Source: Chloroflexota bacterium (GTDB taxonomy: Bacteria > Chloroflexota > UBA11872 > VXNJ01). Taken from it: DNA of 64,000 nt. Shown here piece by piece: positions 1 to 52,369 of this stretch; the first letter of the stretch is position 1, and every line of letters begins with the position of its first letter. Made by a program: the position numbers and the translations under genes. Location: contig OZ253449.1 of NCBI GenBank assembly GCA_965261345.1, positions 2,221,826-2,285,825 on the forward strand. Reading direction: 5' to 3'. Below the pieces are notes generated by a model, which did no database searches, was not told the DNA's origin, and saw only the letters and a list, made by a program, of their open reading frames with translations.

Positions 1-232
1 GATGACTCCAACCCTCGGGCTGGCCCTGCCAGGCGTGGGCGTTATCCCAGTGGCCGGATTGGTGGATGTACCGGCCGGTCATGAAGTTGGCGCGCGACGG
101 CACGCAGATCGGGCAGTTGACATAAGCGCGGTCAAAGCGGACCCCGCGGGCGGCTAAGGCATCGATGTTGGGGGTCTTGACGACTTCGTGTCCGTAGCAA
201 CCAGTCATCCTGCGGGTGTGTTCATCAGACAT
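1..232 (-). CDS. Sulfatase (arylsulfatase family), N-terminal part; gene continues beyond window start
   Basis: Minus-strand translation from the ATG (revcomp of 230-232) gives MSDEHTRRMTGCYGHEVVKTPNIDALAARGVRFDRAYVNCPICVPSRANFMTGRY.... This is the sulfatase N-terminal signature, including the C-x-P-S-R formylglycine motif. Not in the ORF track because it runs off the window edge. Confidence 0.6.
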   Translation of the reverse strand, partial: MSDEHTRRMTGCYGHEVVKTPNIDALAARGVRFDRAYVNCPICVPSRANFMTGRYIHQSGHWDNAHAWQGQPEGWSH

Positions 233-391
233 GAGAATTAGCAGGTTCATCGGTTGCATGGTCGGGGTCGGTCCTATTTGGGGCATCGTATCTCTCTAAA
301 TGTTGCCGTAGGGAGCACCCACCGCCCCCGGAATTTTTTTTGGTACCTTGGACTATCGGGTCGGTGCTCACACGGCCTGGAATCATGGGCG

Positions 392-403
392 CTCTCTAGA
401 GAG
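392..403. promoter_or_regulatory. Perfect 12-bp palindrome CTCTCTAGAGAG 12 nt upstream of the SRAP start codon
   Basis: Seen directly. Position is consistent with an operator or translation-control element. No canonical LexA/Cheo box was found. Confidence 0.3.
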
Positions 404-415
404 ATCGGCTTGGCA

Positions 416-1078
416 ATGTGCGGACGCTTCGGGCTCTTTTCCGACCTCGATCATCTGGCCGAGCAATTCGGCTTTGAGCCGCTGGCGTTGCGCGAGCTTT
501 ACCAGACCTCCTACAACGTTGCCCCGACCCAGGATGTGTTGACGGTTTCCGCTCCCGGGCTAACCCTGGAACCGATATGGATGCGCTGGGGGCTGGTGGC
601 CCCCTGGCTGGCCGCCGGGCGGCCGCTGGGCAAACCGATCTTCAACGCCCGGTCGGAGACGATCGCGCAGAAACCGATGTTTCGCAGTGCCTTCCGCCGC
701 CGCCGCGGCCTGGTGCTCGCCGATGGCTTCTATGAGTGGCAGCGGATCGGCGCGCGCCGGCAAGCGCACTGGATTCGCCGGCGCGACCGGGCGCCGCTGG
801 CGCTGGCAGCGATATGGGAGCGGCAGGCCGGATCGGGGCTCCGCTCCTGTGCGGTCGCCACCACCACCGCCAACGAACTTATGGCGCCGGTCCACCAGCG
901 GATGCCGGTTCTATTGGATCCGACGACGGTTTCGCGCTGGCTGGACCCGGGCGCTGGCCGCGATGAGTTGCTCTCCCTCTGCGATCCCCGGGCGTGGCCG
1001 GACATGGAGGTGCTGGCGGTCTCAGATAGGGTTGGCCGGGTGGCCAACAACGACCCCAGCCTCATCGATCCGATTTAG
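416..1078 (+). CDS. SRAP-domain (SOS-response associated peptidase, YedK/HMCES family) abasic-site processing protein
   Basis: The ORF track opens at 254, but the family-typical N-terminus MCGRF (ATG at 416-418) lies inside it. The Cys2 nucleophile requires Met1 removal, so 416 is the biological start. The whole sequence matches the SRAP fold (FNARSET, DGFYEW). Confidence 0.8.
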   Translation: MCGRFGLFSDLDHLAEQFGFEPLALRELYQTSYNVAPTQDVLTVSAPGLTLEPIWMRWGLVAPWLAAGRPLGKPIFNARSETIAQKPMFRSAFRRRRGLVLADGFYEWQRIGARRQAHWIRRRDRAPLALAAIWERQAGSGLRSCAVATTTANELMAPVHQRMPVLLDPTTVSRWLDPGAGRDELLSLCDPRAWPDMEVLAVSDRVGRVANNDPSLIDPI

Positions 1079-1103
1079 GCGGTAGGGCGGCCGCTGGCGC
1101 CGC

Positions 1104-4100
1104 TTAACCCCAATCGCGGCTTGGTTCATTGACCACCAGTTCGGCCGACCAGGGCGGGGCCAGGGCCCGGGCCCGGTCGACCATGATGTTGGCGCAACCG
1201 TCGCGGCGTGACATCTCTCCCTCCACCAGCACCAGCGGGGCACAGAGGGCGTCGCGGTGCCTGTCCCAGGTCGACGGCCAGACCGCCAGCGGGACCATCC
1301 CGAATTCATCCTGCAGGGTCATAAAGATCATCTGCCCCAGCGGCCGCTGCCGCCGCAGCACCTTGCCGGCGACGCTGATCCGGACACCGTCAGGGACGTG
1401 GGCAAGCTGGCGGCTGCTTAGCACCGACCCGGCCAGCTGCGGGCGCAGGACCGACATCACATGACCATCGGTCCAGAGCCCCAGGGTTTGGTACTCGTAG
1501 GCCATCCGGCTAGATGCCGGCAACGGCGCGAGATTGGCCATCGTCGCTCCAAGCGGCAGCGGCAGGGGAGCCTGGGCCGAGGGCGGGCGGTAGCGCAGAC
1601 CCACCTCCCAGAGGGCTTGCCGGCGATCGTCAAATCCGGCCAGCCGGTCGCAGGCCCCGGCCTTGACCAGGGCTTCCAGGGCCCCCTGGTAGAGCCCGCT
1701 GCGAGCCACCAGGTCGCCCAGCGAGCGGAAATTTCCGCTCTTTACGCGCGCGTCCAGCATTCGCTGGGCGCTGGTCTGTTCTACGCCGGCCACAAACGTT
1801 AAGCCCATCCGGAAGGCCGCCTTGCCCGCGGGACTGCAGCGCAGCTGGCTGCGGTTAACGTCCGGCCCAAGGACGCTGACCCCGCGTTGGTGGGCATCTT
1901 CCTTGAGGGTCTCGATCGACCAGAAGCCCATCGGCTGAGCATTAAAGATCGCACAGTAAAACTCAACCGGAAAGTAATGCCGCACCCAGGCCATGTGATA
2001 GGCGGTGGCGCCGAAGGCCAGGGCATGGGCCTCGGGGAACATGTAATGCGGGTTGAATTTCTTAAATATCCGATCGGCTATCGCGGTCGGCACCCCGCGC
2101 GCCCTGGCGCCATCGCGGAAGCGCTCCCAGTAGGAACGGAGCAGGTCGGTGTTGTTGCGGCGCTGAAAGGCCCGCCGCAGCAGATCAGATTCCGAGGCCG
2201 ACAGACCGCCCACGTCCATCCCCAGCTGGACCACCTGGTCCTGGAAGAGAATGATCCCCAGCGACTTGGCCAATGCCCGCTCCTCCAAGGGGTGGTCATA
2301 GTCCCAGGCCCGTCCACCGCGGCGGCGCAGGAATTCCGATACCCCGTCATTGGCTCCCACCCCGGGCCGCACGGCGGCCACCTCCAGGGCCATGTCGTAG
2401 AGATGGCGGGGCTTCATGCGCGCGATCGTCTGCATCTGCGCGGCGCTCTCGACCTGGAACACCCCCACCGTGTCGCCGCGACCCAGGTCGGCATAGACCG
2501 CCGGATCGGCATGATCAATCCGGCTCAGATCGAGTCGCCGGTGGTGGCGGGCCTCGATCAGCTGCAGGCACTCCTGTAGCTGCGAGAGCGCGCCGAGAGC
2601 TAGGAAATCGATCTTGACAAAGCCGGCATCCTCGATCGTGTGTTTGTCCCACTGGCAGATGTAGCGTCCGGCAATTGCCGACGGCTGCACCGGCACCATC
2701 TCGCTAAGTGGCCGCGAACTGATGATCATCCCGCCCGGATGCTGCGCCAGCCCCTTGGGAAACCCCTGCAACTGACCGCCCAGCTCGATCAGGTCGCGCC
2801 AGCCGCGGTGATCGCGCTTGCCCGCCAGCTGCGGTATCTTGGTCAGCGCCTCCTCCAGGTCGGCCGCCGATCGCGATTCGGCGCGGCGGGCCAGGAGTTC
2901 AAGCTCGGTGGCCGGCAACCCCAGCGCCCGGCCGACATCGCGGACCGCGCCCTTGAGGCGGTAGGTGGGGATCATCGCGGTGAGCGCGGCGCGCTCGGGG
3001 CCCAACTCGGCAAACACCTTCAGGATCAGTTTTTCGCGGATGTCGCGCGGAAAATCCAGATCGATGTCGGGTGGACCAACCAGCCGGTCCTCGGGCAGGA
3101 ACCGCTCCAGTGGCAGATCGTATTGCAGGGGGTCGACATGTGAGAGCCCGATCAGGGTGCCGGTGAGCATGGCCACCGATGAGCCGCGCCCGCGCCCGGG
3201 TGCGCGTTCAGCCAGCGGGGCTCCCGCCGGCAGGTGTCCCAACTCGACGGCAACCTGCCTGGCCCACTCGATGATTTGGCGGTAGAGCAGAAAGAATCCG
3301 GCCAGGTCGTGTTTGGCAATCAGGCGGAATTCCTCGTCCAGGCGCGCCTGGACGGCGGGGCCGATCCGGCCGTAGCGCTGCCGGGCGGCGGCCCGGCAGA
3401 CATGCTCGAAATAGGCCTGCCCACTGGCAAAACCGGGCGGGATCGGGTAGCTGGGGAAGGAATAGCGGATCTGCTTGGCGGCAAAGGCCATGCAGCGCCG
3501 GGCGATCAGGTCGTTGTTGGCCAGCGCCTGCGGCCAGCGCCTGAACAGGCGGGCCAATTCGGAGCGCTCGCGCAGGTGGTAGTTGCGGTTTGGGTGCCGC
3601 TGGCGATGACAGCCGTCAAGGGTGGTATTGAGGCGAATTGCGGTCAGGACGTCGCAGAGTCGATGGCGGCTGCGGTCGTGATAGCAGGCCCCATTGGTTG
3701 CGACGATGCCAATTCCCAGGTGGCCGGCCAGCTGGGCCCGGTCACGATTGCCGGCCAGCTCGCCGGGGGCAAGATGGCGCTGCAGTTGCACAAAGACCGC
3801 CTCGTTGCCCAGCATCTGGCAGTAGCTGCCCAGCAATCGGCGGGCGGCGGCGATGTTGCCGGCCGCAAGCAGTTGCGCCAGATGTCCACCCGGGGCCCCC
3901 ACCAGGGCGATGAGTCCCTGCCCGTGCTCGGCCAATTGCCCGCGATCGAGTACCGGATCGCGGCGATCGCCCCGCTGGTGGGCGTTGCTGATCAGGCGGC
4001 ACAAATTGGCATAGCCGATTCCGGTTTCGGCCAGCAGGGTGATGGGGGCGGGCTTGAGCTGGTCGTGCGCAATTGCCAGCTCGGCGCCGATGATCGGCTT

Positions 4101-4286
4101 TATCCCCACCGCCTGGGCGGCCGCGGCCAGTTCCAGCGCCCCGGTCAGGTTATTGCGGTCGGTAAGGGCCAGCGCCCGATAGCCCAGCTGGGCCGCGCGG
4201 GCGACCAGTTCGTCAACCGATGAGGCTCCCCGCCCGAACGAGTACCAGCTCCGGCAGGCCAGCTCGCTGTAGCTTGGCAGCTCCAT
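1104..4286 (-). CDS. dnaE2: Error-prone DNA polymerase III alpha-like subunit DnaE2 (ImuC)
   Basis: 1060 aa. PHP-domain N-terminus MELPSYSELACRSWYSFGRGASSVDELV.ALALTDRNNLTG and a Pol III alpha core. The length (shorter than DnaE1) and position immediately downstream of an ImuB-like gene are typical of the mutasome polymerase. Confidence 0.85.
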   Translation of the reverse strand: MELPSYSELACRSWYSFGRGASSVDELVARAAQLGYRALALTDRNNLTGALELAAAAQAVGIKPIIGAELAIAHDQLKPAPITLLAETGIGYANLCRLISNAHQRGDRRDPVLDRGQLAEHGQGLIALVGAPGGHLAQLLAAGNIAAARRLLGSYCQMLGNEAVFVQLQRHLAPGELAGNRDRAQLAGHLGIGIVATNGACYHDRSRHRLCDVLTAIRLNTTLDGCHRQRHPNRNYHLRERSELARLFRRWPQALANNDLIARRCMAFAAKQIRYSFPSYPIPPGFASGQAYFEHVCRAAARQRYGRIGPAVQARLDEEFRLIAKHDLAGFFLLYRQIIEWARQVAVELGHLPAGAPLAERAPGRGRGSSVAMLTGTLIGLSHVDPLQYDLPLERFLPEDRLVGPPDIDLDFPRDIREKLILKVFAELGPERAALTAMIPTYRLKGAVRDVGRALGLPATELELLARRAESRSAADLEEALTKIPQLAGKRDHRGWRDLIELGGQLQGFPKGLAQHPGGMIISSRPLSEMVPVQPSAIAGRYICQWDKHTIEDAGFVKIDFLALGALSQLQECLQLIEARHHRRLDLSRIDHADPAVYADLGRGDTVGVFQVESAAQMQTIARMKPRHLYDMALEVAAVRPGVGANDGVSEFLRRRGGRAWDYDHPLEERALAKSLGIILFQDQVVQLGMDVGGLSASESDLLRRAFQRRNNTDLLRSYWERFRDGARARGVPTAIADRIFKKFNPHYMFPEAHALAFGATAYHMAWVRHYFPVEFYCAIFNAQPMGFWSIETLKEDAHQRGVSVLGPDVNRSQLRCSPAGKAAFRMGLTFVAGVEQTSAQRMLDARVKSGNFRSLGDLVARSGLYQGALEALVKAGACDRLAGFDDRRQALWEVGLRYRPPSAQAPLPLPLGATMANLAPLPASSRMAYEYQTLGLWTDGHVMSVLRPQLAGSVLSSRQLAHVPDGVRISVAGKVLRRQRPLGQMIFMTLQDEFGMVPLAVWPSTWDRHRDALCAPLVLVEGEMSRRDGCANIMVDRARALAPPWSAELVVNEPSRDWG

Positions 4287-4288
4287 GA

Positions 4289-4582
4289 TTAGTAGCTTTG
4301 CTGGTACCAGCGCCCGCTGACCAGGTCGCAGAACACGGTCAGCAACTGTCCGCTGGCTAGCAACAGCTGGAAATAACGGCGGCGGATCGGCTCATCGCGC
4401 CACCATTCATCATCTAGTTCCCATACGTCCAGCAGCGCCCGCACCGGAATTTGCCGGCCAGGGTGTGGTGCAACCGCCAGCGGGAGGCCGCGATCATCAC
4501 TGTGCACACCGGTGGCGCGCGGCAGGTTTACGGGGCGGTAAAACGGACCAGCGCCTGGCGCCGTTCCGGAATGCGTGACCAT
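4289..4582 (-). CDS. Small ORF between imuB and dnaE2; possibly the frameshifted C-terminal tail of ImuB (DUF4113-like), otherwise a hypothetical protein
   Basis: 97-aa ORF overlapping the 3' end of imuB by ~55 nt in a different frame. It ends in the conserved-looking motif WELDDEWWRDEPIRRRYFQLLLASGQLLTVFCDLVSGRWYQQ, 3 nt before the dnaE2 start. Confidence 0.35.
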   Translation of the reverse strand: MVTHSGTAPGAGPFYRPVNLPRATGVHSDDRGLPLAVAPHPGRQIPVRALLDVWELDDEWWRDEPIRRRYFQLLLASGQLLTVFCDLVSGRWYQQSY

Positions 4583-5727
4583 GGTTCTACTTCAATTACC
4601 CGCAGCAACGCCTCGCCGGCGAGGCGTTTACCCAGCCGGGCTACCGCGACCTGCAGGTCGGTTTTGCGCGATTGCGACCAGAGTTCGGCCTGGATGGTGG
4701 GCACCGTATCAAGCTGGCCCAGTTCGACCTGGAGGTTCTCGACCGGACCGGGCAGGCCCAGTGGCCCATCGCCCAGCCCCGCCAGTCCTGCCTGGATGGC
4801 TGAGTGGGCGGCGGCGGGGCTGGCGGCCAACTCCTTGAAAGTGTGCCTAAAAGACCAGGTCGGGTGATCGCTGATCTGCCCGATCAGGACCGCTTGACCA
4901 GCTGCCCTTCCCTCCATTGCCGGGAGGCGGTATAGGCGCTGCAACAGGGCCAGCAGCCCACTGCTGAAGGCCTCTACACTCACCGCTGGAAATGGAAACT
5001 CGAGCCGGTCGGCAGCCGTTGGCGTGGCCGGCAATGGCCTTAAAGGGGCGTGGTCGCGACCCTGGGCCAGCTCCCAGGCCCGGGCCCCGTCGGGACCGAA
5101 GCGCGCGCGCAGGGCCGCTTGCGGCTGGGCGGCCAGGTCGCCGATGCACTGTAGGCCGAAATCCTCAAGCAGTCGACGCGTTGCCTCCGGCAACGGCAGC
5201 AGCGATAGCGGCAGATCAGCCAGGAAGGACCGCAAGGCCTCCGGACTGGTCGGAGCCGGCAGCATCTGATTGGCGCCCGACTGCTCGGCCGCACAATAGG
5301 CTGCGAATTTCCCCGTGCCCATCCCCAGCCGAACCTCCCAGTCGCCCGCGACGGCAGCGCGCAGGCGGCCGGTTAGGCCGCCAATGCCCCCGTAGAGCGC
5401 GGCCAGCCCACCTATATCGATGTAGGCATGACCCGGATCGGTGCTTTCAACCCCGGGAAAGCAGTTGGCCAGATGACCGATTACGCGTTCCCAACAGAGG
5501 CGGTAATGGACCGGGTCGGCGGCAATGAGGGCCACATCCGGGTAACTGGCCAGAATCTGGCTGAGCGGGGTTCCCGGCCGGGCGCCGATTGTCGGACTTG
5601 CCTCGCGTAGCCGCGGGCGCGAGGCGATGCCGTCGTAGATTACCAGCGGGCGTCCGGCCAGCTCGCGATGGCGTGCTGATTCGGCCTGCAGGGCCAGCCG
5701 GGGAATGATCAAACAAGCTACATACAT
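4528..5727 (-). CDS. imuB: ImuB, Y-family-polymerase-like mutasome component
   Basis: Y-family/UmuC-like fold starting MYVACLIIPRLALQAESARHRELAGRPLVIYDG (ATG = revcomp of 5725-5727). The ORF track extends to 5838, but the family-typical N-terminus begins at 5727. Sits directly upstream of dnaE2. Confidence 0.75.
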   Translation of the reverse strand: MYVACLIIPRLALQAESARHRELAGRPLVIYDGIASRPRLREASPTIGARPGTPLSQILASYPDVALIAADPVHYRLCWERVIGHLANCFPGVESTDPGHAYIDIGGLAALYGGIGGLTGRLRAAVAGDWEVRLGMGTGKFAAYCAAEQSGANQMLPAPTSPEALRSFLADLPLSLLPLPEATRRLLEDFGLQCIGDLAAQPQAALRARFGPDGARAWELAQGRDHAPLRPLPATPTAADRLEFPFPAVSVEAFSSGLLALLQRLYRLPAMEGRAAGQAVLIGQISDHPTWSFRHTFKELAASPAAAHSAIQAGLAGLGDGPLGLPGPVENLQVELGQLDTVPTIQAELWSQSRKTDLQVAVARLGKRLAGEALLRVIEVEPWSRIPERRQALVRFTAP

Positions 5728-5964
5728 AGTCCATGATGATATCAAAACAAGATATGAAAGATGCATACGTTTAGCTAACGCAATAATGCAATTACCGCCC
5801 ACGTCCGGGTAGCCCGATGCCCGGATCCGATTTGCCAATAGCCGGCTCTCCCCTGCCGGTCCGGTCCGCCAGCGGCGGCTTTTTTAAAAAATCCCTTGTA
5901 AGGTCGGGTAATTTGGAGCGCAAATTGATAATTTGGAGGCTGAGCGTTTCAAACTGTCCGTTTT

Positions 5965-7053
5965 GTGCTGGAATGCCCTGGCCTAAAGCACCGATTCGTC
6001 CTGGGAGCTGCCGTGCCGTTGACTGACGACTTTCAAATTCCGGTATCAGATGCGCCGTTTTGCGCCGAGACCGACCTGTCTGCCCAGCAGGACTGGCGGA
6101 CCCCCATCGATCGTTTCTTCGTGCGCAGCCACTTTGCCGAGCCGACGCTTGGCACCGACCATCAGATTTCCATCCGGGGCGCGGTTGCCCGACCCTACTC
6201 GCTCGGCAGCGATCAGCTGCTGGAAATGGAATCGGTGACCCATACGGTCACCATCGAGTGCGCCGGCAACAGCCGATCGTATCTCTCACCGCCGGCGGCG
6301 GGCCTGCAGTTCCAGCATGGTGCGGCCGGCAACGCCAGCTGGGAAGGGGTGCCGCTGGCCGTGCTGCTGGAGTCGGCCGAGATCCTGCCCGGAGCGCTGG
6401 AGGTCCTGTTCCGCGGGGCCGATGCCGGTATGGAGGGCGGCGAGCACATGAGCTTTGAGCGCTCGCTGCCACTTGACCGGGCGCTTTCACCCGATACGAT
6501 CGTTGCGCATTCGATGAATGGTCGCCTGCTTACCCGGTCCCATGGGTTCCCGGCCCGCCTGATCGTGCCCGGCTGGTACGGGATGGCCTCGGTCAAATGG
6601 CTAACCGATATCGAGGTGATCGATTACCATTTTGACGGCCACTTCCAGTCCGATGCCTACACCTTTATTAATCCCGGCGCCGGCTCGGGCCCCAATCCCC
6701 CGGTTACGACCATGGCGATCAAGTCGGTCATCACCCGGCCGAACCAGGGCGCCAGGTTGCGGGGTCCGGTTACGATTTCCGGTTTTGCCTGGTCGGGCAA
6801 TGGCTTGGTAGACCTGGTCGAGGTGAGCCCCGACCAGGGCGAAAGCTGGATTGCCGCCGATTTGGCGCCGACCGATTCCCCGCGTGCCTGGCGCGGGTGG
6901 AGCCTGGACTGGCATCCGCCGGGCAGCGGACACTATGTTCTTTCCGCCCGGGCCCGCGATGCGGCCGGCAACATGCAACCGCGACGAGCCAGCTGGAATT
7001 ACCGCGGCTACGTAAATAACGCGATGCAGGCCATCTCGGTCATTGTTGAATAG
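5965..7053 (+). CDS. Sulfite-oxidase-family molybdopterin oxidoreductase (Mo-co binding domain plus dimerisation domain)
   Basis: Motifs VRSHFAEP and ECAGNSRS (Mo-ligating Cys). C-terminal Ig-like Moco dimerisation region. Confidence 0.75.
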   Translation: MLECPGLKHRFVLGAAVPLTDDFQIPVSDAPFCAETDLSAQQDWRTPIDRFFVRSHFAEPTLGTDHQISIRGAVARPYSLGSDQLLEMESVTHTVTIECAGNSRSYLSPPAAGLQFQHGAAGNASWEGVPLAVLLESAEILPGALEVLFRGADAGMEGGEHMSFERSLPLDRALSPDTIVAHSMNGRLLTRSHGFPARLIVPGWYGMASVKWLTDIEVIDYHFDGHFQSDAYTFINPGAGSGPNPPVTTMAIKSVITRPNQGARLRGPVTISGFAWSGNGLVDLVEVSPDQGESWIAADLAPTDSPRAWRGWSLDWHPPGSGHYVLSARARDAAGNMQPRRASWNYRGYVNNAMQAISVIVE

Positions 7054-7114
7054 CCCGGGGCACCCACAAGGCCCTCGCCGATTGGCCGGGGTTCCGCCGG
7101 CGCCGGCGTCGGCT

Positions 7115-7188
7115 TGGCTGGGGTAGAAGGATTCGAACCTCCGCTACGTGGGCCAGAACCACGCGTCCTACCGCTAGACGATACCCCA
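7115..7188 (-). tRNA. tRNA-Gln (anticodon CTG)
   Basis: Minus strand reads TGGGGTATCGTCTAGCGGTAGGACGCGTGGTTCTGGCCCACGTAGCGGAGGTTCGAATCCTTCTACCCCAGCCA. Folds as a cloverleaf with anticodon loop TTCTGGC, a GGTTCGAATCC T-arm and an encoded CCA. Confidence 0.85.
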
Positions 7189-7268
7189 ATTGGCGCCGGG
7201 TTGAATCAGCGTTGAAAATGTTAGCAAGCAACCTACCGCCAATCAGCCCCACCGACAGGCCCGCCTAA

Positions 7269-9704
7269 GTGATCCGAACGAGTCCGATTTACCACGCCGG
7301 GCGGCCCGCAGCGGGCCGATTGCTGCTGTTTGCCCTAGCGCTCTTTTCAGCGCTGGCGCTGGCGGGCGGGGCCGCCGCGGTCGCGGTGCGGGCGCTGGGT
7401 GAAGAAAACGAGGGGATTTGCAATTACTCGGCGCCGATGCGCAATGCCCTGCTTGCGCACGAGGAAAAGGAATTCTTCCTGTGTGATTCGTCTCCGTTTA
7501 CCGATGATGATCAGGACTTTATCTGGGCCGGCGATCTGGACCTGGCAAGCCATGTGGGCTCGTACTTTACCCCCGGCCAGGGCGAGCTGGACGGCTATGC
7601 TGCAGGGTCACGCGTGGATTTGATCAGGCCCGGCTTTGCGGTAGACGACATAAATGCCGACGCGGCGCTGGAGTCGTACCGGAACAACGAGGATTACCGT
7701 GAGTTCGGCATCGATTCCCAAGGGTCGGAGGCCGATCGGCAAAACTCCGACGGAGTGCTGGGTCTAACCTTCCTGCTGGACGGTTCACCGCCGGCCCGCA
7801 GCGGATTGACCAGCGACAGGTTCTTCGGCACCGAGGGCGAACTGGTGTGGATTACCTTCCAGATGGGGGATCCGCCGGATGGATTCTCCAACTGGAAGGA
7901 TTCTGATCTCGATGGCGATGGTTTTTATCTAACGCTTGAGCTGGAAATTGAAACGTCCGGCGATTCGCGCTCGGTTTTCTTCCTGGTCAATTCGGATGAT
8001 CCGCCCGATACCCTCTATGCAATCCCATTCTTAATTCCCGAAAACGATGAGATCGAATCGACCCAACGGGTTGACGTGAACCTGACCCCAGTCGGCGTAT
8101 ACGACACCCGCGTGGACGCCGCCGACCTGGCGCCGACCGACTACATCGACGATGAGGAAGATCGATTCGAAGAGATCGAGCGGGCGCTCGCGCGCGGCGA
8201 TCGGGCAACCCTTGAGGTGAGCGACGACGACCTGCCGGCCAATCGGGTTTGTGACCGCAGCCGGGTGGTAACCGAGGCGCTGGAGGCGGCCACCGGTGAT
8301 GATTGCGATGAAATCAGCGTCGCCGACCTGGCCGGCATCGCCGACCTTGATCTTTCGGAGCTGGGAATCGAGACACTGGCCGCCGATGATTTCGCCGGCC
8401 TCGCAAAGTTGCGGAGATTGGACTTGGCTGGAAATGACATCTCCAGCCTGCCGGCCGGCGTTTTTTCCGGGGTCGGCTCCGAACTGACCGCGCCGACGGT
8501 GGCAGTGATTGACATAAGTGACAATGCCGGTCCCGCCGATCGCGGATTTTCACTGGCCAACGTGTCAAGCCGATTTCGCGCGAGCATGAAAGCGCGCCAG
8601 GCCGTCCGGCTCAATTCGTTCGTTAACATAAGCGACCCCAGCTACGGTTTCGAAGATTCCTCGTATTCGGTTCGCGAGGGGCAAAACCTGGTTGTCGGGC
8701 TCTCGGCCTTCCGCGATAGCACTATCACGTTCCGGGCGTTTGCGCGCGACAGCGGGCGCTATTCCGACACCGATTGCCAAGCCCCCTGTGAGGCCCCCGG
8801 GGCAGCGGTGATCGATGAGGACGGAGAGTATCTGCTCGGGTTTTCGGTACCGATCGACGAAGACGAGAACGACGATACCTTCACCATGCTTTACGGAGCG
8901 GGCATTGATCCCGACTCACTGGACTCGATCGCCGGCCTGGCAAAGCTCACCGTGACCGAAGCGGCGGTTGTGCTACCCAGCGAATTTGATTCGATCGTGG
9001 TATTGGCGGGCACCGAACTGATTACGGCCCCGAACAATCCCGACTTAGACCACAACCTCTCTGATCTATCAGTTACCCGCGGCCGGCTGCGCCTGAACGC
9101 TCCTTTCCGGCAGTTCTACTACGACACCGGCGGCCTTACACGCTGGGGCTACCCGACCTCGGAAGTCCTTATGCTTGAACCTGGCACGCTTTCGCAGTTC
9201 TTCCAGCGCGGTGTGGTCGACTTTCACGATGTCGGCTTCGGCTGGATCCTGGAACGGCGATTGACCTGGGACTACGTAGGTGGTGGAGCCGGCGGAAGCT
9301 TTGACCAGGGGGTCGAACCGGCGCCGGTTCAACCGGGCGGCGGACCGGTGGTCGGATTCGGTCACGCAGTGACCAACCAGACCGCCAGCGGGGGTCGCAC
9401 CGGATTCCTCGACACCTACAACGAACTCGGCGGAGTGGACAGTTTCGGCTATGCCAAGACGGCTGCGCGGGTGGACACCAACCTGCCGGGGACGCTATTC
9501 GAACCCGGTACAACCCCAGGATTTATTCGACAGTACTTCCAGGCGGCAATCTTCCAGCGCTCTGCGGCGGGCACCGTCGAAATTACCCTGCTGGGCGATA
9601 CGCTGCGCAATCAGTTGGTGCCGCAGCACTCCAGCATCCCCGCCTTCAGGCGCGCCAACCGGCTGCTGGAAGGTCAGGTCCTGAATCTGCAGCTGATCAA
9701 TTGA
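7269..9704 (+). CDS. Secreted/cell-surface protein: signal peptide, acidic Asp/Glu-rich region, leucine-rich repeats, two C-terminal LGFP-type repeats
   Basis: N-terminal hydrophobic segment LLLFALALFSALALAGGAAAVA. LRR-like LDLSELGIETLAADDFAGLAKLRRLDLAGNDISSLPAGVF. C-terminus GGLTRWGYPTSEV...GTLSQFFQRGVVDF and ELGGVDSFGYAKT...GFIRQYFQAAIFQ fit the LGFP cell-wall-anchoring repeat pattern. Paralogous to the CDS at 51587-52291. Confidence 0.7.
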   Translation: MIRTSPIYHAGRPAAGRLLLFALALFSALALAGGAAAVAVRALGEENEGICNYSAPMRNALLAHEEKEFFLCDSSPFTDDDQDFIWAGDLDLASHVGSYFTPGQGELDGYAAGSRVDLIRPGFAVDDINADAALESYRNNEDYREFGIDSQGSEADRQNSDGVLGLTFLLDGSPPARSGLTSDRFFGTEGELVWITFQMGDPPDGFSNWKDSDLDGDGFYLTLELEIETSGDSRSVFFLVNSDDPPDTLYAIPFLIPENDEIESTQRVDVNLTPVGVYDTRVDAADLAPTDYIDDEEDRFEEIERALARGDRATLEVSDDDLPANRVCDRSRVVTEALEAATGDDCDEISVADLAGIADLDLSELGIETLAADDFAGLAKLRRLDLAGNDISSLPAGVFSGVGSELTAPTVAVIDISDNAGPADRGFSLANVSSRFRASMKARQAVRLNSFVNISDPSYGFEDSSYSVREGQNLVVGLSAFRDSTITFRAFARDSGRYSDTDCQAPCEAPGAAVIDEDGEYLLGFSVPIDEDENDDTFTMLYGAGIDPDSLDSIAGLAKLTVTEAAVVLPSEFDSIVVLAGTELITAPNNPDLDHNLSDLSVTRGRLRLNAPFRQFYYDTGGLTRWGYPTSEVLMLEPGTLSQFFQRGVVDFHDVGFGWILERRLTWDYVGGGAGGSFDQGVEPAPVQPGGGPVVGFGHAVTNQTASGGRTGFLDTYNELGGVDSFGYAKTAARVDTNLPGTLFEPGTTPGFIRQYFQAAIFQRSAAGTVEITLLGDTLRNQLVPQHSSIPAFRRANRLLEGQVLNLQLIN

Positions 9705-9780
9705 CCGGGCCGGTTAGCGCCGGCCAGGCAGCGCCCGCCGCAGTCTGGCTGGCAATTGGTCGCGTCGCGTTGACGGGAGG

Positions 9781-10347
9781 GTGCGAGTCGTGCAATTAGG
9801 CTGGCGGACGGTGGCTTCGCGATTGGCCTGGAGCGGCCGCTTTCCGGTGTTTGAGGATGAGATCGAAGCCGAATTCGACGGACGCCGCCACACCTACACC
9901 TACCTTGCCTCGCGGGCCCGGGCGGTTTCCATCCTGGCCCAGGGCGTGGACGGTCGGATATTAACGGTGCGCGAATACCGTCACCCGCTCGGACAGGTCG
10001 TGCGCGACCTGCCGATGGGGTCGCTGCGCAAGGATGAGGACCCGTTGGCGGGGGCGGCCCGCGAACTGCGTGAAGAAACCGGGTACCGCGCCGGTAAGCT
10101 CGCATGGTTTGGCGCGGTGCATCCGATTCCGGCGCTCACCCGCCTTCGTTTGGAGTATTTTTTCGCCCAAAACCTCGAATTCGTCGGCGCCCAGCGCGAT
10201 GAATCAGAAATCATGGAAACCGATTGGCTAGAACTGGGGCAAGTGGTCGCTGGAATCGAGGCCGGCAACCTGCAGGCCGGTTCGATCCAGTTGGGGGTCC
10301 TAATGGCCGCCCAGCGCGGTTTGATCTGCCTGCCCGCGCCGGCATGA
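9781..10347 (+). CDS. NUDIX hydrolase
   Basis: Nudix box G.AARELREETGY. Stop overlaps the gltX start (ATGA). Confidence 0.75.
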   Translation: MRVVQLGWRTVASRLAWSGRFPVFEDEIEAEFDGRRHTYTYLASRARAVSILAQGVDGRILTVREYRHPLGQVVRDLPMGSLRKDEDPLAGAARELREETGYRAGKLAWFGAVHPIPALTRLRLEYFFAQNLEFVGAQRDESEIMETDWLELGQVVAGIEAGNLQAGSIQLGVLMAAQRGLICLPAPA

Positions 10348-11870
10348 AGCCCGAAACGCCTACCCGGCCGCGCTATCGGATCGCCCCCAGCCCCACCGGC
10401 TCGATCCACATCGGCACCGCCCGGACGGCGCTTTACAACTACCTGCTAGCCCGTCAAAGCGGTGGAGATTTCGTGTTACGGGTCGAGGACACCGCCCGCG
10501 ATCGAAACCGGCCTGAATGGGAAGCGGCGATATATTCGGGGCTTGCCTGGTTGGGCCTGGATTGGGATGAGGGTCCCGATATCGGCGGGCCCTATGGGCC
10601 CTACCGCCAGAGCGAACGCTTAGAACAACATCGCGTCTGGCTTGATCGCCTCATTTGCAGCGGCCGGGTCTATCGCTGTTTTTGCAGCCCGGAAGAGCTG
10701 GCTCAGGAACGCTGGGACGCCCAGCGGGCCAAACTACCGCCGCGCTATTCCGGGCGCTGCCGGCGGCTGTCGGATGCTCAGGTTTCCGCCCGCCTGGCGG
10801 GCGGTGAACCTGCCACCTACCGCTTTGCGGTCCCGCAAAAAAGCGTTGGCTACCCGGATTTGATAATGGGTAACCTGGAGGAAGACGCGGCCCTGTGGGG
10901 TGATTTCATCGTGGCCCGTTCCGACCACTCACCGGTCTACAACTTCGCCGTGGTGGCCGACGACTGCGACATGGCCATTACCTGCGTTCTGCGGGGGGCC
11001 GACCACATCTCCAACACGTTCAAGCAACTGGTGCTCTATGAGGCGCTCGGGGTTGAGGCTCCGCAGTTTGGGCACATCCCCTTGGCGCTTAATGCAAAAC
11101 GGCAAAAGCTCTCCAAACGGGACGGATCGGTCTCGATTGCCGAATACCGCGATCTGGGCTATCTCCCCGAGGCGGCAAACAATTTCATGGCCCTCCTGGG
11201 GTGGAACCCCGGCGATGAACGTGAGTTTTTCACCCTTGACCAACTGGTGTCCGAGTTCTCCGTGGCGCGCATCAATCGCTCCAACGGGGTCTTCGACAAC
11301 GATCGCCTGGACTGGTTCAACGGTCAATATCTGCGCCAGTTGAAGCTCCCGCAACTGGCCGAACGGGCCTGGACCTGGCTGCAGGCGAGTGGCTACTTTG
11401 ACGGTGCGGGTTCCCCGCGGAAATCGATCGGCGATGGAACCCTCGACTTCCAGCCGGTGGACCGCCCCGAGCGCGAGTACTTTTCCTCCGCCCTGGGCCT
11501 GGAACAGGAGCGGATCAAGAAACTGGCCGATCTGCCGGCGGTCATTTCGTTCTTTTTCGTCGATCGCGTCGATCCCGAGTTAAAGGATCTGGTGGCCCGC
11601 CGGCAGAGCCCCCAGGACACCGCGGCCGCGCTTACCCGGGTGGCCGATTGGACCCGCGGGCGCGATCTTTCCGATCTGGCCGCCACCGAAGATTTCCTCC
11701 GCAGCCTGGCCGCAAGTCTGGGTTGGAAGGCCGGAGTATTGTTCATGCCAATCCGGATCGCGCTGACCGGTTCGAAGGCGACTCCGCCGCTATTTGAAAC
11801 GATGGCCGTCCTGGGCGCCGGTCGGGTCCAGGACCGGCTCCGCCGGGCCGTTGCGGGCCTTGATGGCTAG
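10344..11870 (+). CDS. gltX: Glutamate--tRNA ligase
   Basis: Class I HIGH motif (SIHIGTART) and KMSKS-like KLSKRDG. ATG at 10344 precedes MKPETPTRPRYRIAPSPTG. The ORF track's upstream extension from 10224 is unlikely to be translated. Confidence 0.9.
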   Translation: MKPETPTRPRYRIAPSPTGSIHIGTARTALYNYLLARQSGGDFVLRVEDTARDRNRPEWEAAIYSGLAWLGLDWDEGPDIGGPYGPYRQSERLEQHRVWLDRLICSGRVYRCFCSPEELAQERWDAQRAKLPPRYSGRCRRLSDAQVSARLAGGEPATYRFAVPQKSVGYPDLIMGNLEEDAALWGDFIVARSDHSPVYNFAVVADDCDMAITCVLRGADHISNTFKQLVLYEALGVEAPQFGHIPLALNAKRQKLSKRDGSVSIAEYRDLGYLPEAANNFMALLGWNPGDEREFFTLDQLVSEFSVARINRSNGVFDNDRLDWFNGQYLRQLKLPQLAERAWTWLQASGYFDGAGSPRKSIGDGTLDFQPVDRPEREYFSSALGLEQERIKKLADLPAVISFFFVDRVDPELKDLVARRQSPQDTAAALTRVADWTRGRDLSDLAATEDFLRSLAASLGWKAGVLFMPIRIALTGSKATPPLFETMAVLGAGRVQDRLRRAVAGLDG

Positions 11871-16136: not shown

Positions 16137-16838
16137 CTAAGCCTTAATCGCCGAGGGACAGAGTTCGGCCAGTTGGCAGTTAGGGCAATCAGCCCGGCGG
16201 GCCTTGCAGATCCGGCGGCCGTGCCAAATCAAGCTATGCCCAAAGAAAACCCACTCGGCCTGGTCCACCAGCGCCATTAGGTCCTTTTCAATCCTTACTG
16301 GGTCCTGGGCGGTGGTCAATCCCAAGCGTTGGGCGAGCCGGCTGATATGGGTATCTACGACGATCCCGCTGGCGATTCCAAACGCGGTTCCAAGCACCAC
16401 GTTGGCTGTCTTACGGGCTACTCCGCGAAGGGTCAGCAACTCGTCCATCGAGGCGGGCAACCGGCCGTCGTACTCCTCAACCACCCTGGTCGCGGCGGCC
16501 TTGATCGCCCGCGCCTTATTGCGGAAGAACCCGGTGCGCCGAACCAACTCTTCAATTTCAGCAAGATCGGCGGCGGCAAAGTCGGTCGGCGAGGGAAAGC
16601 GGGCAAACAAGGCCGGAGTCTCGGCGTTGACCCGTTCGTCGGTGCATTGCGCCGAAAGAATCGTGGCAACGGTAAGCTCCCATGCGCTGGAATATTGCAG
16701 TTCGCAGTCGGCATCGGGGTACAGCGCCCTGAGTTGGGCCACGATCGTTGCGGTCCGCTCGGTTCGCTTGGCTCGGCTTTCGCGCCAGCGCCGAATCTTG
16801 ACTGCGCCGGATTTAGGTTTGGCATTGCGGGCGGCCAA
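16137..16838 (-). CDS. nth: Endonuclease III (DNA-(apurinic/apyrimidinic site) lyase)
   Basis: HhH-GPD core (LTLRGVARKTANVVL) and C-terminal 4Fe-4S motif C-x6-C-x2-C-x5-C (CKARRADCPNCQLAELC). Confidence 0.85.
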   Translation of the reverse strand: MAARNAKPKSGAVKIRRWRESRAKRTERTATIVAQLRALYPDADCELQYSSAWELTVATILSAQCTDERVNAETPALFARFPSPTDFAAADLAEIEELVRRTGFFRNKARAIKAAATRVVEEYDGRLPASMDELLTLRGVARKTANVVLGTAFGIASGIVVDTHISRLAQRLGLTTAQDPVRIEKDLMALVDQAEWVFFGHSLIWHGRRICKARRADCPNCQLAELCPSAIKA

Positions 16839-17883: not shown

Positions 17884-20370
17884 TTAGTCGCGATTGGTTC
17901 CGGATCGGACGTTGCGGCCGGGCGCGTAGCGGGAAAGCAGGGCCGACCGGTCGATCCACATCTCGCCGACCTGGAATGCGAAACCGCCTTGATGGAGTGG
18001 CGCCATATCGGCCTGGCCGGTGTCCGCGTGGTCTCTATTGCGGCGCAGGTGCGCGGTTCGTTCTGGCATGTAGAGAGAGAGCAGGCCGAGCATGTAGGCC
18101 CGATCTAGTTCACGGCGCCAGGTTGGCGGTTGCTCGCGGATTGAAAATCCCAACCGCCGAGCTCCCCGAAAAAGTAGGGTCGTTGCGGTAACCGCTTGCA
18201 CACAGCGACCATTGCGGTCGAGCGAACCGTCGGCCATTTGTTGCGACAGGGCGGCCAGATCTTCGCGCAGGGTTTTGATGACCTGCCAGGTCCGGACCGG
18301 CGCGGCGGCACCGGCCAATCGGGCAAGCTGGCGGTTGGAAAAGTGAATCCGGCAAATTAAATCACCGCGGCGTATACGATTTCCATCTGGCAATATGAGC
18401 GGACGCCAATCCTTATGGATTTCCAAACCGTAGAGTAATAGGCCGTCGCTGCGCACCGGTTGCAACCGGTGCCAACGCGAGTAAAGTCGATCCCAAACCC
18501 ACCAAATCCAGAGCAGGCCGGAGGGGCGGCCCGGTGCGTGCTTGCCGGCGGATTTGAGGGCTATGCGCAACCCGGCGTGGGCCATTTGCCCAGCCACACG
18601 GGTCGCCGGCGGAGAAGGCGCTCCCGGTGCCGGCCCACCGGCCGAATACCAGCGCCGTCCAATCCCCAGAAAGCCCAACGCCCAGCGTAGAAACATCCAG
18701 ATCATCCCGATCCGCCAGGGCAGGGCGCGCAACCGCCGCGGCGAGGTGCGAATACTTGCGGCGCCGCGGTTTTGGCCGAGAAATTGGCTTGGACCGATGC
18801 GCTGCAACCGGCCGTTTGAGGATCGCAGCGACGCGGTCGCGCGGCGCATCAAATCCAGGTCCTCGGCCAGCTGCAGCTCGCAATCAAATCCGCCGAGGCG
18901 CTGGAATAGCTCCCAGTCTAAGTAGACCATCTGGGAATGGATGTCAAAGAGCCGCTTGCCAAATTCCAAAGCGTTGAAGAATCCGCACTCCCAGAAATTG
19001 TTCGATGCCGACTTGACCCGGATACTCCCGCCGTGGGAGCCGTTGCGCCAAGCTGAGGCCACTGCCAGAAGAACCGCCGGCTCCAGCGTGGAATCTGCAT
19101 CCAGAAAAACCAGCACGTCGCCACGTGCCAGGGTCGCGCCCAGATTTTTTGCCCGCGCCGTGCCACGGTTCGGTTCTTGCGCCAGGCGCACCGGCGGCAT
19201 ATCCGCCGGGGTGTCCGTCCAGCGGCGCGCCAGATTCTCGACCACGTCTACGGTGGTGTCGCGTGAACCGTTGTCTACGACCACGCATTCCACTCGGTCA
19301 AGCGGATATTGCTGCTCGGCAACCGATTTGAGCGCAAAGGTGATGTGGGATTGTTCGTTGAGGGCGGGCACAATTACTGAAATAAGCGGCGATTTTTGGT
19401 TGCCCTGGGACCGGCCATTGCCCAGCGCGAGCAACTGGCTGGCCGTTACGATGTCCCGTTGTGCCGCCAAAGCGGTAAGGTGATCGAGCACGCGCCGCCG
19501 CGCGCGGCCATCCTGGAGCCGTTGCGGATGCAGGAACACCTTGACCACCGGGCTGCGCGACAGACCTCCGTAACGGAGCCGGGCGAGCGCCGCGACGGCC
19601 CAGTTGCCCAATTGCAGCAACCGCTCGTGGAAGCCGCCAACTCCCATAAAACCCTGCCACGGGGTCGCGATCGCCCGCCCGGTCCGCAAGTCGCGCAACC
19701 CCGACTGTTCGAGCACATAGCGGTATCCGGCAGACGCCACACCGGACCGACCGGCGTGATTGGTCAGCCAGGCCGGGGCGCAAAATCCGTCCGGCTCCAC
19801 CCCGATGGCTTCGACGATAGCGCGCCGAGCGGCAAGGGCGGCTTCGCCGGCGATGGGAGCCGACAGGCTTGAGAATTCACTAGCCCGCGGGGCAAACAGC
19901 CGGCCCCGCAGGCGGGCAAGCGGCGAACCCTGCAACCTGCCGCGGGTCGTGTGCGACCAGCCGTGGGCAACGATCTCACTGCCGGCGGCGACCTCTGCCC
20001 GCAGCAGCCTGCACAGCTCCGCGTCTTCTGCCAGCGGCCAACGACCGGCATAGCAGGGCACCACCTTGAGTACGCGCGGCCGGATGTTGCGCTGATCCAA
20101 CTCGTCGAGCAACTGGCGCACTCCAGACGCAAACGGCGGCGCCACATCATGAATCGTAACCAGCAATTTGGGCCTGGGTCGCGAGCGGGAGTCGGCGCGC
20201 ATTCCCTTCATCCTAGAGTTCCAACCCCGCCGCACCGGAGACATCGATACGGGTTCGATCTCCAACCCCAGGGTGCGCCGCCCGCGGATATCAGGTCCAA
20301 AGTTCCTGCCTGCCTCATCGCTGAAAAGGTTGCTGACGGTGGCAGCCCACAGCGCCGCCACGGCGCCCAT
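17884..20370 (-). CDS. Large multidomain protein: polysaccharide-deacetylase-like (DUF2334-type) N-domain, family-2 glycosyltransferase, uncharacterised C-terminal domain
   Basis: 828 aa. Deacetylase-like region KLLVTIHDVAPPF...IVAHGWSHT. GT2 region LISVIVPALNEQ...VVVDNGSRD...FLDADS. C-terminal ~270 aa has two hydrophobic segments and no recognised family. The N-terminal ~60 aa is low-complexity, so the start is uncertain. Confidence 0.7.
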   Translation of the reverse strand: MGAVAALWAATVSNLFSDEAGRNFGPDIRGRRTLGLEIEPVSMSPVRRGWNSRMKGMRADSRSRPRPKLLVTIHDVAPPFASGVRQLLDELDQRNIRPRVLKVVPCYAGRWPLAEDAELCRLLRAEVAAGSEIVAHGWSHTTRGRLQGSPLARLRGRLFAPRASEFSSLSAPIAGEAALAARRAIVEAIGVEPDGFCAPAWLTNHAGRSGVASAGYRYVLEQSGLRDLRTGRAIATPWQGFMGVGGFHERLLQLGNWAVAALARLRYGGLSRSPVVKVFLHPQRLQDGRARRRVLDHLTALAAQRDIVTASQLLALGNGRSQGNQKSPLISVIVPALNEQSHITFALKSVAEQQYPLDRVECVVVDNGSRDTTVDVVENLARRWTDTPADMPPVRLAQEPNRGTARAKNLGATLARGDVLVFLDADSTLEPAVLLAVASAWRNGSHGGSIRVKSASNNFWECGFFNALEFGKRLFDIHSQMVYLDWELFQRLGGFDCELQLAEDLDLMRRATASLRSSNGRLQRIGPSQFLGQNRGAASIRTSPRRLRALPWRIGMIWMFLRWALGFLGIGRRWYSAGGPAPGAPSPPATRVAGQMAHAGLRIALKSAGKHAPGRPSGLLWIWWVWDRLYSRWHRLQPVRSDGLLLYGLEIHKDWRPLILPDGNRIRRGDLICRIHFSNRQLARLAGAAAPVRTWQVIKTLREDLAALSQQMADGSLDRNGRCVQAVTATTLLFRGARRLGFSIREQPPTWRRELDRAYMLGLLSLYMPERTAHLRRNRDHADTGQADMAPLHQGGFAFQVGEMWIDRSALLSRYAPGRNVRSGTNRD

Positions 20371-20973: not shown

Positions 20974-21258
20974 TTAGGCGACCTGGCGCTCGCGCAGATT
21001 GGCCACGTGCCCGCGTATGTTGCGGGCCAGATCCTCATCGGATGCGGCAGATTCAGCCATCTGAATGAAGTCTTCCGAGGAGAGTTGCAACTGGGCCAGC
21101 ACCCGACGGTCGATCGGGCAGGGATAAATGTATTCGTCGATGTAGCCGCCGGCCAAGGCCAGCGCTTTATCTGACATGCGCGCAATCCAGGGCACGCCGT
21201 CGACGGCCACGTCGCGGCCGCGCGGACGGAACGGACGTTCGATGGTGGGTTCGGTCAT
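20974..21258 (-). CDS. Conserved hypothetical protein
   Basis: 94-aa ORF with non-repetitive composition (…VPWIARMSDKALALAGGYIDEYIYPCPIDRRVLAQL…). No family confidently recognised. Confidence 0.45.
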   Translation of the reverse strand: MTEPTIERPFRPRGRDVAVDGVPWIARMSDKALALAGGYIDEYIYPCPIDRRVLAQLQLSSEDFIQMAESAASDEDLARNIRGHVANLRERQVA

Positions 21259-21339: not shown

Positions 21340-22293
21340 CTAGGGCAACCGATCCAGTCCCATTTCATGGACCAGCTCGGTGACTTCGTCCGGCCTGGCC
21401 ACCGGTTCGGCCAGGGCCGCAAGCAACGACTTTCGCCGATTGGCAGATTGTGGTCCAGCCGGGCCGGACTCAAACCGATCGAGCGCGGTCAGCAGGGCCA
21501 GGAAACGATGGACTCCCAGCAGCTCCGGCCGGTAGCCGCCGCCGCCGATGTATTCGAAAAGGCCGATCAATTCAAGCGCCAGTGGCGTGGTGACCGCACA
21601 GGTGAAGTGATCGGTTGCCCCGCGGGCTCCGCTGGCGATTAGGTAGGACACCAAGCGGCGTTCCACCCACTCGGCCCCCAGCACTGAGAAGTCGACAACC
21701 GCGACCGACTGTCCATCGCTAACCAGGTTGCTGGCCGAACAATCCAGCGACCCGTAATTCCAAGACCCCTGCCAGGCGATCTCATAGACCGGCTGCAGCA
21801 GATCCTCGGCATCGAAGAGATCGGGGTTGATCGACCGGCAGGCCCGGGCGGTGCTGGCCAGCTCCCCCCGATCGCGCTCGCGCAGGTGCTCGTCGATTAG
21901 CTGGTCGGATTCGCTGCGCGACCCCGACAGATCGGCGAATATGAGATCGATGGCCAGCAGCGAACGCAGGGCGACAGATACCTGGGGATCGTCGCGATCA
22001 TGGCTGATGACCGCGTCCAGGGTTTGCTCACCGACCCAGGAAAGCAGCAGTGCCGCCTCCTCCATATTGGCGGCAATCACCTGCGGGGCGGGCGCGTCGA
22101 ATGCGGCCAACTGTTCGAGCGTGGCCTTCTCGGTGCGGTAGGCGTCCAGATCCTGTCCGTATAGCTTTAGGGCCCAACGCCGACCGTCTGACCCGCTGAC
22201 TGAGTAACAGGCTCGTCCGTTGGAACGTTCAACTATCGGCTGAGTCGAAACCGTGGCTCCGGTCAAATCCGCGGCCAGTTGATCGGGCTTCAC
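21340..22293 (-). CDS. Phosphotransferase-enzyme-family protein (aminoglycoside/choline-kinase-like protein-kinase fold)
   Basis: Kinase-like catalytic segment GSLDCSASNLVSDGQSVAVVDFS (the HGD..N..DF equivalent) and an N-terminal nucleotide-binding lobe (WALKLYG). Confidence 0.6.
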   Translation of the reverse strand: MKPDQLAADLTGATVSTQPIVERSNGRACYSVSGSDGRRWALKLYGQDLDAYRTEKATLEQLAAFDAPAPQVIAANMEEAALLLSWVGEQTLDAVISHDRDDPQVSVALRSLLAIDLIFADLSGSRSESDQLIDEHLRERDRGELASTARACRSINPDLFDAEDLLQPVYEIAWQGSWNYGSLDCSASNLVSDGQSVAVVDFSVLGAEWVERRLVSYLIASGARGATDHFTCAVTTPLALELIGLFEYIGGGGYRPELLGVHRFLALLTALDRFESGPAGPQSANRRKSLLAALAEPVARPDEVTELVHEMGLDRLP

Positions 22294-33348: not shown

Positions 33349-33373
33349 AGGACGATTGCAATTGCCTGACCGA

Positions 33374-49420: not shown

Positions 49421-49464
49421 AAATCAGGTGCTGACCTGTCGCAGGTACTCGGAAATAGGGCGGC

Positions 49465-51554: not shown

Positions 51555-51586
51555 AAACCCCGGCCTTTACCCATTCGATCGAGGTA

Positions 51587-52291: not shown

Positions 52292-52369
52292 GTGCCGAGG
52301 GCGGCACCGGATGGTCGACTTGCGCCGTTGACTGCTGTCAATATCGAAAAACCTGCAACATGAAGACGA

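Follow-up and report, generated by a model that had tools for sequence, protein, structure and literature searches.

DnaE2 mutagenesis cassettes in which ImuB's C-terminal domain forms a separate protein have been described before. Aravind et al. (2013) reported ImuB-C as a stand-alone protein accompanied by an inactive DinB and by DnaE2, and tied SRAP proteins to mutagenic polymerase operons (PMC3765255). Timinskas and Venclovas (2019) described operons of the Kyrpidia tusciae type, encoding an inactive Y-family polymerase (PolY), a stand-alone ImuB-C and DnaE2; imuA was reported absent from these operons and genomes, and RecA was proposed as the replacement for ImuA (PMC6511836). A 2026 survey names this system DnaE2X-iPolY-ImuBC-RecA or "split ImuB", regards it as a possible ancestor of ImuA-ImuB-DnaE2, and includes Sphaerobacter thermophilus and Dehalogenimonas lykanthroporepellens, both Chloroflexi, in its supplementary data file 4 (PMC12926913). 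Here, these systems are compared with a dnaE2 cassette at positions 254 to 5838 of a 64,000-nucleotide (nt) stretch of Chloroflexota DNA (contig OZ253449.1, positions 2,221,826 to 2,285,825), referred to below as the window. The locus very probably encodes a translesion mutasome of the split-ImuB kind, with the composition imuY/iPolY-imuB-C-dnaE2 (DnaE2X-iPolY-ImuBC-RecA). The evidence consists of its gene content, the homology of its products, the loss of catalytic residues, and a conserved gene overlap in which a start codon is embedded.

The Deinococcus cassette is the sole version of the split-ImuB system with genetics. In Deinococcus deserti and D. ficus, imuY-imuB-C-dnaE2 is SOS induced, and UV mutagenesis requires ImuY, DnaE2 and RecA (PMC8072749). 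Listed as DnaE2X-iPolY-ImuBC-RecA (PMC12926913), it shares its gene order with the window (an inactive Y-family protein, an ImuB-C of approximately 80 to 100 amino acids [aa], and DnaE2) and likewise has no imuA. However, the Deinococcus operons begin with lexA and the window has neither a lexA gene nor a LexA box. In addition, Deinococcus ImuB-C is shorter (80 aa, in contrast to 97 aa), and the C-terminus of ImuY looks different by unaligned inspection. At a greater distance, Mycobacterium tuberculosis ImuA'-ImuB-DnaE2 and the Pseudomonas and Caulobacter ImuA-ImuB-DnaE2 systems resemble the window in combining a dead Y-family scaffold, which carries clamp and RecA-NT motifs, with ImuB-C and an active DnaE2, and they presumably lead likewise to damage-induced mutagenesis. 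In these mutasomes, ImuB-C forms one protein with the Y-family domain, and a RecA-like ImuA or ImuA' is essential, whereas the window has separate, overlapping genes and no ImuA.

The translated open reading frames (ORFs) of the 254-5838 region resolve into four genes, a plus-strand SRAP gene and three minus-strand cassette genes. The latter are transcribed in the order 399-aa Y-family gene, 97-aa ORF, 1060-aa dnaE2. The genes and the features within them are as follows.

416 to 1078, plus strand: SRAP gene (YedK/HMCES family), 220 aa, with ATG at 416, N-terminus MCGRF and a PF02586 match.
1104 to 4286, minus strand: dnaE2, encoding a DnaE2X-like, error-prone paralogue of Pol III alpha of 1060 aa, from its domains, NCBIfam scores and identity to DnaE2X.
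4289 to 4582, minus strand: imuB-C, a stand-alone ImuB C-terminal-domain protein of 97 aa, from homology to ADJ25744.
4528 to 5727, minus strand: imuY/iPolY, a catalytically inactive Y-family polymerase homologue of 399 aa, from a weak IMS Pfam match and alignments.
4528 to 4582, minus strand: the 55-nt overlap of iPolY and imuB-C, read from the sequence.
4594 to 4671, minus strand: RecA-NT-like motif of iPolY, aa 353-378, SRKTDLQVAVARLGKRLAGEALLRVI, from hhalign.
4678 to 4692, minus strand: putative beta-clamp-binding motif QAELW, aa 346-350, from conservation and consensus.

The preliminary description of this DNA had placed dnaE2 directly downstream of imuB. It had missed the 97-aa imuB-C gene, which intervenes and to which the 241 bp between the Y-family gene and dnaE2 belong. 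A gap of 2 nt lies between the TAA stop codon of imuB-C and the ATG of dnaE2, and dnaE2 converges with the SRAP gene across a 25-nt spacer. The start of the Y-family gene also required correction. A start at TTG 5838 would add a 37-codon extension that is unsupported, as every homologue begins with MxxAC; the start is instead the ATG at 5727 (MYVAC..., 399 aa).

The 1060-aa polymerase scores 823.6 bits against the NCBIfam error-prone polymerase model NF004225, in contrast to 608.3 bits against the DnaE1 model NF004226, and contains PHP, DNA_pol3_alpha, finger, HHH_6 and OB domains. It is 48% identical to D. lykanthroporepellens DnaE2X ADJ25745 (E = 7e-120; first 399 aa of the reference only), and the polymerase aspartate motifs PDIDLDF and KIDFLALG are intact in the translation. 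By these scores and this identity, the polymerase is DnaE2 and not the replicative DnaE1. Its PHP metal-binding motifs (approximately 4152-4259, aa 10-45) are degenerate, with ELACRS and TDRNN in place of the ELHCHS and TDHDN of many relatives; the motif is degenerate in the L007-L020 clade as well (ELRAMS).

The 399-aa protein matches the Pfam IMS family only weakly. In the HMMER alignment, D103 and E104 of Escherichia coli DinB fall on G99 and H100, and G99 is invariant among the 42 iPolY homologues over which residue conservation was judged. The N-terminal DxD region, which lies outside this alignment, reads ACLIIPR by eye. Because D103/E104 are replaced by G99/H100, the alignment marks the Y-family protein as catalytically dead. 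Both this loss of acidic residues and the assignment of the polymerase to DnaE2 agree with the preliminary description. Over its full length, iPolY is 37% identical to S. thermophilus iPolY ACZ39475 (E = 4e-60), with which it shares the tail VEVEPWSRIPERR. In the QAELW motif, Q346 is invariant and L349 is conserved in at least 90% of the homologues, and published iPolY members have QETLF and QGSIF at the same position. The known Qxx[LI][FW] consensus points to QAELW as a putative clamp motif. The sole hhalign match of the iPolY family profile to E. coli RecA aligns aa 353-378 with the RecA-NT helix (RecA residues 6-31), and this segment is conserved relative to S. thermophilus iPolY.

The 97-aa protein shares 47% identity along its entire length with the published D. 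lykanthroporepellens ImuB-C ADJ25744 (E = 1e-26). A word-indexed homology search reached 10 close relatives; an exhaustive profile search reached 1519 representative clusters, the best 150 of which are nearly all stand-alone proteins of approximately 95 aa. The AlphaFold2 model of ImuB-C is all-beta, with six strands and a mean predicted local distance difference test (pLDDT) score of 81.5. A fold search of the Protein Data Bank (PDB) returned no match, as was also reported for ImuB-C in PMC12926913.

The S. thermophilus and D. lykanthroporepellens systems, from the phylum of the window, thus match it at 37% (iPolY), 47% (ImuB-C) and 48% (DnaE2) identity. They differ from it in other respects. 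The S. thermophilus dnaE2 is non-adjacent, judged by its distant accession number, in contrast to the adjacent dnaE2 of the window. Specific to the window's clade are its SRAP neighbour and the absence of a LexA box.

A pattern scan run over the species representatives of GTDB matched at least 599 stretches, at least 584 of which were confirmed as encoding an iPolY relative. The best 80 of these at least 584 relatives all come from Chloroflexota (Dehalococcoidia, SAR202, Thermomicrobiales and Chloroflexia) and from both short-read and long-read assemblies; together with L001 they make up the 81 loci (numbered L001 and onward) considered below. The nearest relatives of the window are Chloroflexota metagenome-assembled genomes (MAGs); the locus itself recurs on a 766-kb metagenomic contig, and a 2.39-Mb contig in NCBI and ENA carries identical proteins. 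The loci are species representatives at 32 to 61% protein identity, and statistics over them ignore shared ancestry. With at least 584 stretches, the split-ImuB system is widespread in Chloroflexota, in contrast to the published surveys of complete genomes, which call the group small.

The preliminary description had read the locus as a "classic" mutasome minus imuA, that is, an imuA-imuB-dnaE2 system whose imuA is lost or lies elsewhere in the genome. A Y-family-like gene does adjoin dnaE2, and split cassettes with imuA' elsewhere are known from Actinobacteria (PMC6511836). It was also right that no imuA lies between the Mo-oxidoreductase gene and the Y-family gene, as the 237-bp region (5728-5964) leaves no room for one. 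In place of an imuA or imuA' in the cassette, the neighbours are the divergent Mo-oxidoreductase gene upstream and the SRAP gene downstream. Among the 30 window ORFs scanned, none matched the RecA-fold/ImuA family, recA or lexA, and neither recA nor lexA occurs within 7 kb on either side of the cassette in the 81 loci. However, the ImuB-C domain is a separate gene and is not fused to the Y-family protein, each of the three proteins has its counterpart among the published iPolY, ImuB-C and DnaE2X members, and genomes with this trio are reported to lack imuA entirely (PMC6511836, PMC12926913). A classic mutasome is accordingly an improbable reading of the locus. Since genomes of the split-ImuB type are reported without imuA, its absence is expected, presents no anomaly and calls for no search. 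The annotation of an apparent "imuB-dnaE2 without imuA" is thereby corrected to what is in all likelihood a split-ImuB mutasome.

The two halves of the split ImuB overlap. Read in the -1 frame with respect to iPolY, imuB-C covers the last 55 nt of that gene, and the iPolY stop codon at 4528-4530 separates the two. The imuB-C ATG (4582-4580) lies inside the Pro-Trp codons CCA TGG of an invariant EPWS motif. This arrangement is conserved. In the 81 loci, counted from the opening codon of an invariant EPWSR[IL]PER motif, iPolY runs on for 51 to 57 nt (mostly 54 or 57) before it stops; imuB-C is matched by tblastn in 80 of them and is in the -1 frame in 73. In 71, the third base of the Pro codon and the TG of the Trp codon form an embedded ATG, GTG or TTG. 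Codon choice at this Pro is strongly skewed. CCA is used in 46 of the 81 loci compared to 12% elsewhere in the same genes (P = 4e-22), and CCC in 4 compared to 38% (P = 4e-12); three of the four CCC loci are without an overlapping ImuB-C. A Shine-Dalgarno (SD)-like GGAG, GAGG or AGGA core lies 4 to 16 nt upstream of the embedded start in 55 loci, and in none of the loci does the overlap contain an X XXY YYZ slippery heptamer in register. Among the loci that depart from the pattern, six place imuB-C in the +1 frame, where it begins at an ATG of its own past the iPolY stop, and one has it in the -1 frame with a start past that stop. Published ImuB-C proteins begin with MVPNP... and MVTDSG..., and that of the window with MVTHSG...; the shared MV... 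implies the same embedded start. The overlap is unmentioned in the two surveys (PMC6511836, PMC12926913).

Because the overlap is conserved, the Pro codon is skewed and slippery sites are absent, we conclude that ImuB-C is translated from an internal overlapping start, the protein being no frameshift product and the split no assembly artefact. A programmed -1 ribosomal frameshift, yielding a short iPolY plus a full-length fused ImuB in the manner of dnaX tau/gamma, would agree with the -1 frame of ImuB-C in most loci, and the overlap in the window does contain a U-run (CGU UUU A) and a small hairpin (4549-4563). The U-run is, however, limited to the window's clade, and the heptamer that such a shift would use is missing from all 81 loci. 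Moreover, selection at the codon level acts on the embedded NTG start, which the SD-like core often precedes, a -1-frame stop directly precedes the start in 4 loci, and imuB-C is non-overlapping or in the +1 frame in 7, which together make this mechanism highly unlikely. That a single imuB was broken by a frameshift, through a T4/C4 homopolymer assembly error in a long-read MAG or a recent pseudogenization, has next to no probability and is effectively refuted by conservation over the 81 loci: the name of the source contig, contig_2, follows the habit of long-read assemblers, one base inserted at CGTTTTAC joins both frames and fused 489-aa homologues exist, but the two-ORF structure with its stop 54 or 57 nt past EPWS is found in 71 of the 81 species, including SPAdes and MEGAHIT short-read assemblies, as well as in the GenBank annotation of cultured isolates, and identical 97-aa products occur on several independent contigs.

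Genuine iPolY::ImuB-C fusions do exist in two 489-aa protein clusters (P0014 and P0015) and share the same junction, which indicates that the split and fused states interconvert. One 489-aa fusion sits in a SRAP-imuB-dnaE2 operon found in two assemblies (L082, 5259-10656, and L083). There, the fused operon is flanked by ThiF/E1-like and SMODS/DncV-like nucleotidyltransferase genes, a pair resembling cyclic oligonucleotide-based antiphage signaling systems (CBASS). In four loci from Thermomicrobiales/Chloroflexia (L034, L037, L042 and L030), a VapBC-like pair of ribbon-helix-helix (RHH) and PIN genes is inserted, in one orientation or the other, precisely at the boundary of iPolY and imuB-C. 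The insertion, approximately 100 to 900 nt past the EPWS motif, abolishes the overlap, and the same loci have CCC or CTG at the embedded start site. The extra 600 to 900 nt or so between the two genes in L034, L037 and L042 had been considered as a candidate imuA and correspond to this toxin-antitoxin-like pair.

The transcriptional control of the cassette was examined in its upstream region, where three features stand out.

5736 to 5748, minus strand: TGTTT(T)G...TATCAT/TATAAT element, a probable -10 box, from upstream alignments.
5728 to 5964, no strand assigned: divergent intergenic region of 237 bp that holds the cassette promoter and no LexA box.
5965 to 7053, divergent from the cassette: Mo-oxidoreductase gene, the upstream neighbour.

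LexA control, as lexA in the operon or a LexA box, is described as a frequent though not universal trait of these systems and is lacking in the window. The best match to AGAAC-N4-GTTCT in either upstream region (cassette or SRAP) reaches 6 of 10 positions, and none with two or fewer mismatches occurs in window positions 1-10976; the preliminary description had likewise found no canonical box upstream of either gene. In contrast, 51 of the 81 relatives match this Gram-positive-type box at 8 or more of 10 positions upstream of iPolY, a score reached by approximately 4% of equally sized random windows; the box typically falls after a TTGACA-like -35 sequence and before a TATAAT -10. The window, L001 and L002-L006 have no LexA box (best 6 to 7 of 10). 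When 12 known LexA box types were scanned in the window's upstream regions, none fitted convincingly, the only hit being one TTTG-N5-CAAA. This perfect match (5912-5924), the only one in the 64 kb (0.7 expected), is nearer the divergent Mo-oxidoreductase gene and is not conserved in L002-L006. It lies within the palindrome AATTTG-N5-CAAATT (5910-5926), itself inside a direct repeat of two copies of CTCCAAATTA (5908-5937), and is probably fortuitous.

Within the window's clade, neither an alternative conserved palindrome upstream of iPolY nor a motif shared by the SRAP and iPolY upstream regions was found. The non-canonical operator suggested in the preliminary description stays hypothetical. 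The sole conserved upstream block in the window, L001 and L002-L006 is TGTTTG-N0-2-TATAAT/TATCAT, ending approximately 8 nt before the iPolY ATG. The TATAAT/TATCAT part is a probable -10 box with a predicted promoter function, and its position suggests a near-leaderless transcript, with a very short or absent leader. A strict sigma-70 scan found no full promoter upstream of iPolY.

Other elements were seen in these regions. On the plus strand, a GC hairpin CCGCCAGCGGCGG followed by T6 runs into a T6A6 palindrome (5866-5894); it is terminator-like and points to the Mo-oxidoreductase gene, and no plus-strand gene ends there. Perfect GAAC-N4-GTTC cores occur at 21228-21241 (GGAACGGACGTTCG), between ORFs 17884-20370 and 21340-22293, and at 28293-28306 (CGAACGCCTGTTCG), with no others seen; LexA-type boxes over the window are not more numerous than expected by chance (16 compared to 11.7). 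In L010, L016 and L017, a clade in which SRAP directly precedes iPolY, a conserved GCTAA-N3-TTAGC-like palindrome lies 5 to 20 nt upstream of the SRAP ATG, and variant LexA-like boxes (AGCAC-N4-ATGCT) overlap the iPolY -10.

Subunit contacts, a requirement for RecA and a mutagenic function of the window's cassette can be proposed by analogy with the literature. DnaE2 would be the only active polymerase and would perform error-prone lesion bypass. iPolY would act as a scaffold, its Qxx[LI][FW] motif tethering the complex to the beta clamp and its RecA-NT-like helix binding RecA as a substitute for the missing ImuA. The PHP domain of DnaE2 would be the docking site of the 97-aa ImuB-C beta-barrel, itself made as a separate polypeptide from the EPWS-embedded ATG, 55 nt before the iPolY stop. 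The overlap of imuB-C together with the 2-nt gap to dnaE2 makes translational coupling of iPolY, ImuB-C and DnaE2 probable. The product of the convergent SRAP gene, a recurrent companion, probably shields abasic sites in single-stranded DNA.

Several points weigh against the split-ImuB assignment and this scheme. The Chloroflexota members of the system are known from sequence alone, and the subunit contacts come solely from published AlphaFold models. The absence of imuA and the presence of recA were checked over the 64 kb of the window only. The RecA-NT-like match, although at the expected position, is weak (E = 0.033, 15% identity). The degenerate H-x-H motif of the PHP domain could matter if ImuB-C docks there. 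Finally, as the window's clade is without the LexA box of its relatives, damage inducibility is unproven.

Two further ideas are offered jointly and tentatively, as a combination that is rather less probable than not. The conserved overlap may be a translational-coupling device, one inserted base away from the canonical fused ImuB, and the cassette of the window's clade, its LexA operator lost, may run from a start-abutting promoter, uncoupled from SOS. If this reading of the overlap were true, it would outline a concrete, testable way in which ImuB arose. These results leave the understanding of translesion synthesis unchanged and make small additions: the conserved overlap with its embedded start, the refusions that occur naturally, how widely the system is spread within Chloroflexota, and the clade-level loss of the LexA box.

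The SRAP product matches PF02586 over positions 1-214 of 214 (E = 2.2e-59), and its N-terminus, MCGRFG, has the catalytic Cys as residue 2. Like YedK of E. coli and HMCES, it thus has a full-length SRAP domain and a Met-Cys N-terminus. The exact 220-aa product is on record in databases. PF02586 and the NCBIfam scores bear out the preliminary description in that a DnaE2-based mutagenesis cassette and a convergent SRAP gene are real. An SRAP gene is found within 7 kb on either side of the cassette in 14 of the 81 loci, in convergent, directly upstream co-directional and downstream arrangements. It is co-directional and immediately upstream in L010, L016, L017, L025 and L082, and likewise upstream on the same strand in L083. 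Assuming the usual single copy in genomes of 2 to 5 Mb, this linkage represents, by rough estimate, a strong enrichment, consistent with the association of SRAP with mutagenic polymerase operons that was published (PMC3765255) and had been invoked for this locus. Like the SOS-operon SRAPs of that study, the window's SRAP gene adjoins a mutagenic polymerase cassette, but it is convergent and not co-transcribed.

Further DNA-maintenance genes lie in the window: an HhH-GPD glycosylase (16137-16838), an HNH endonuclease (22552-23073), Ham1 of the inosine triphosphatase (ITPase) family (33320-33955), mfd (35406-38888), topA (39066-41459) and a YoaA/DinG-like helicase (41733-43754). This richness is probably coincidental. 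The mfd ORF (1160 aa) had been considered as DnaE1, and two 811-aa ORFs had been considered as paralogues and are unrelated to each other. An ORF at 48787-49362 has HTH_32/HTH_28 domains and a transposase-like N-terminus, and is followed at 52 to 56 kb by a dip in G+C content to 0.57-0.60, compared to approximately 0.63; the 48787-56000 segment may be mobile or acquired.

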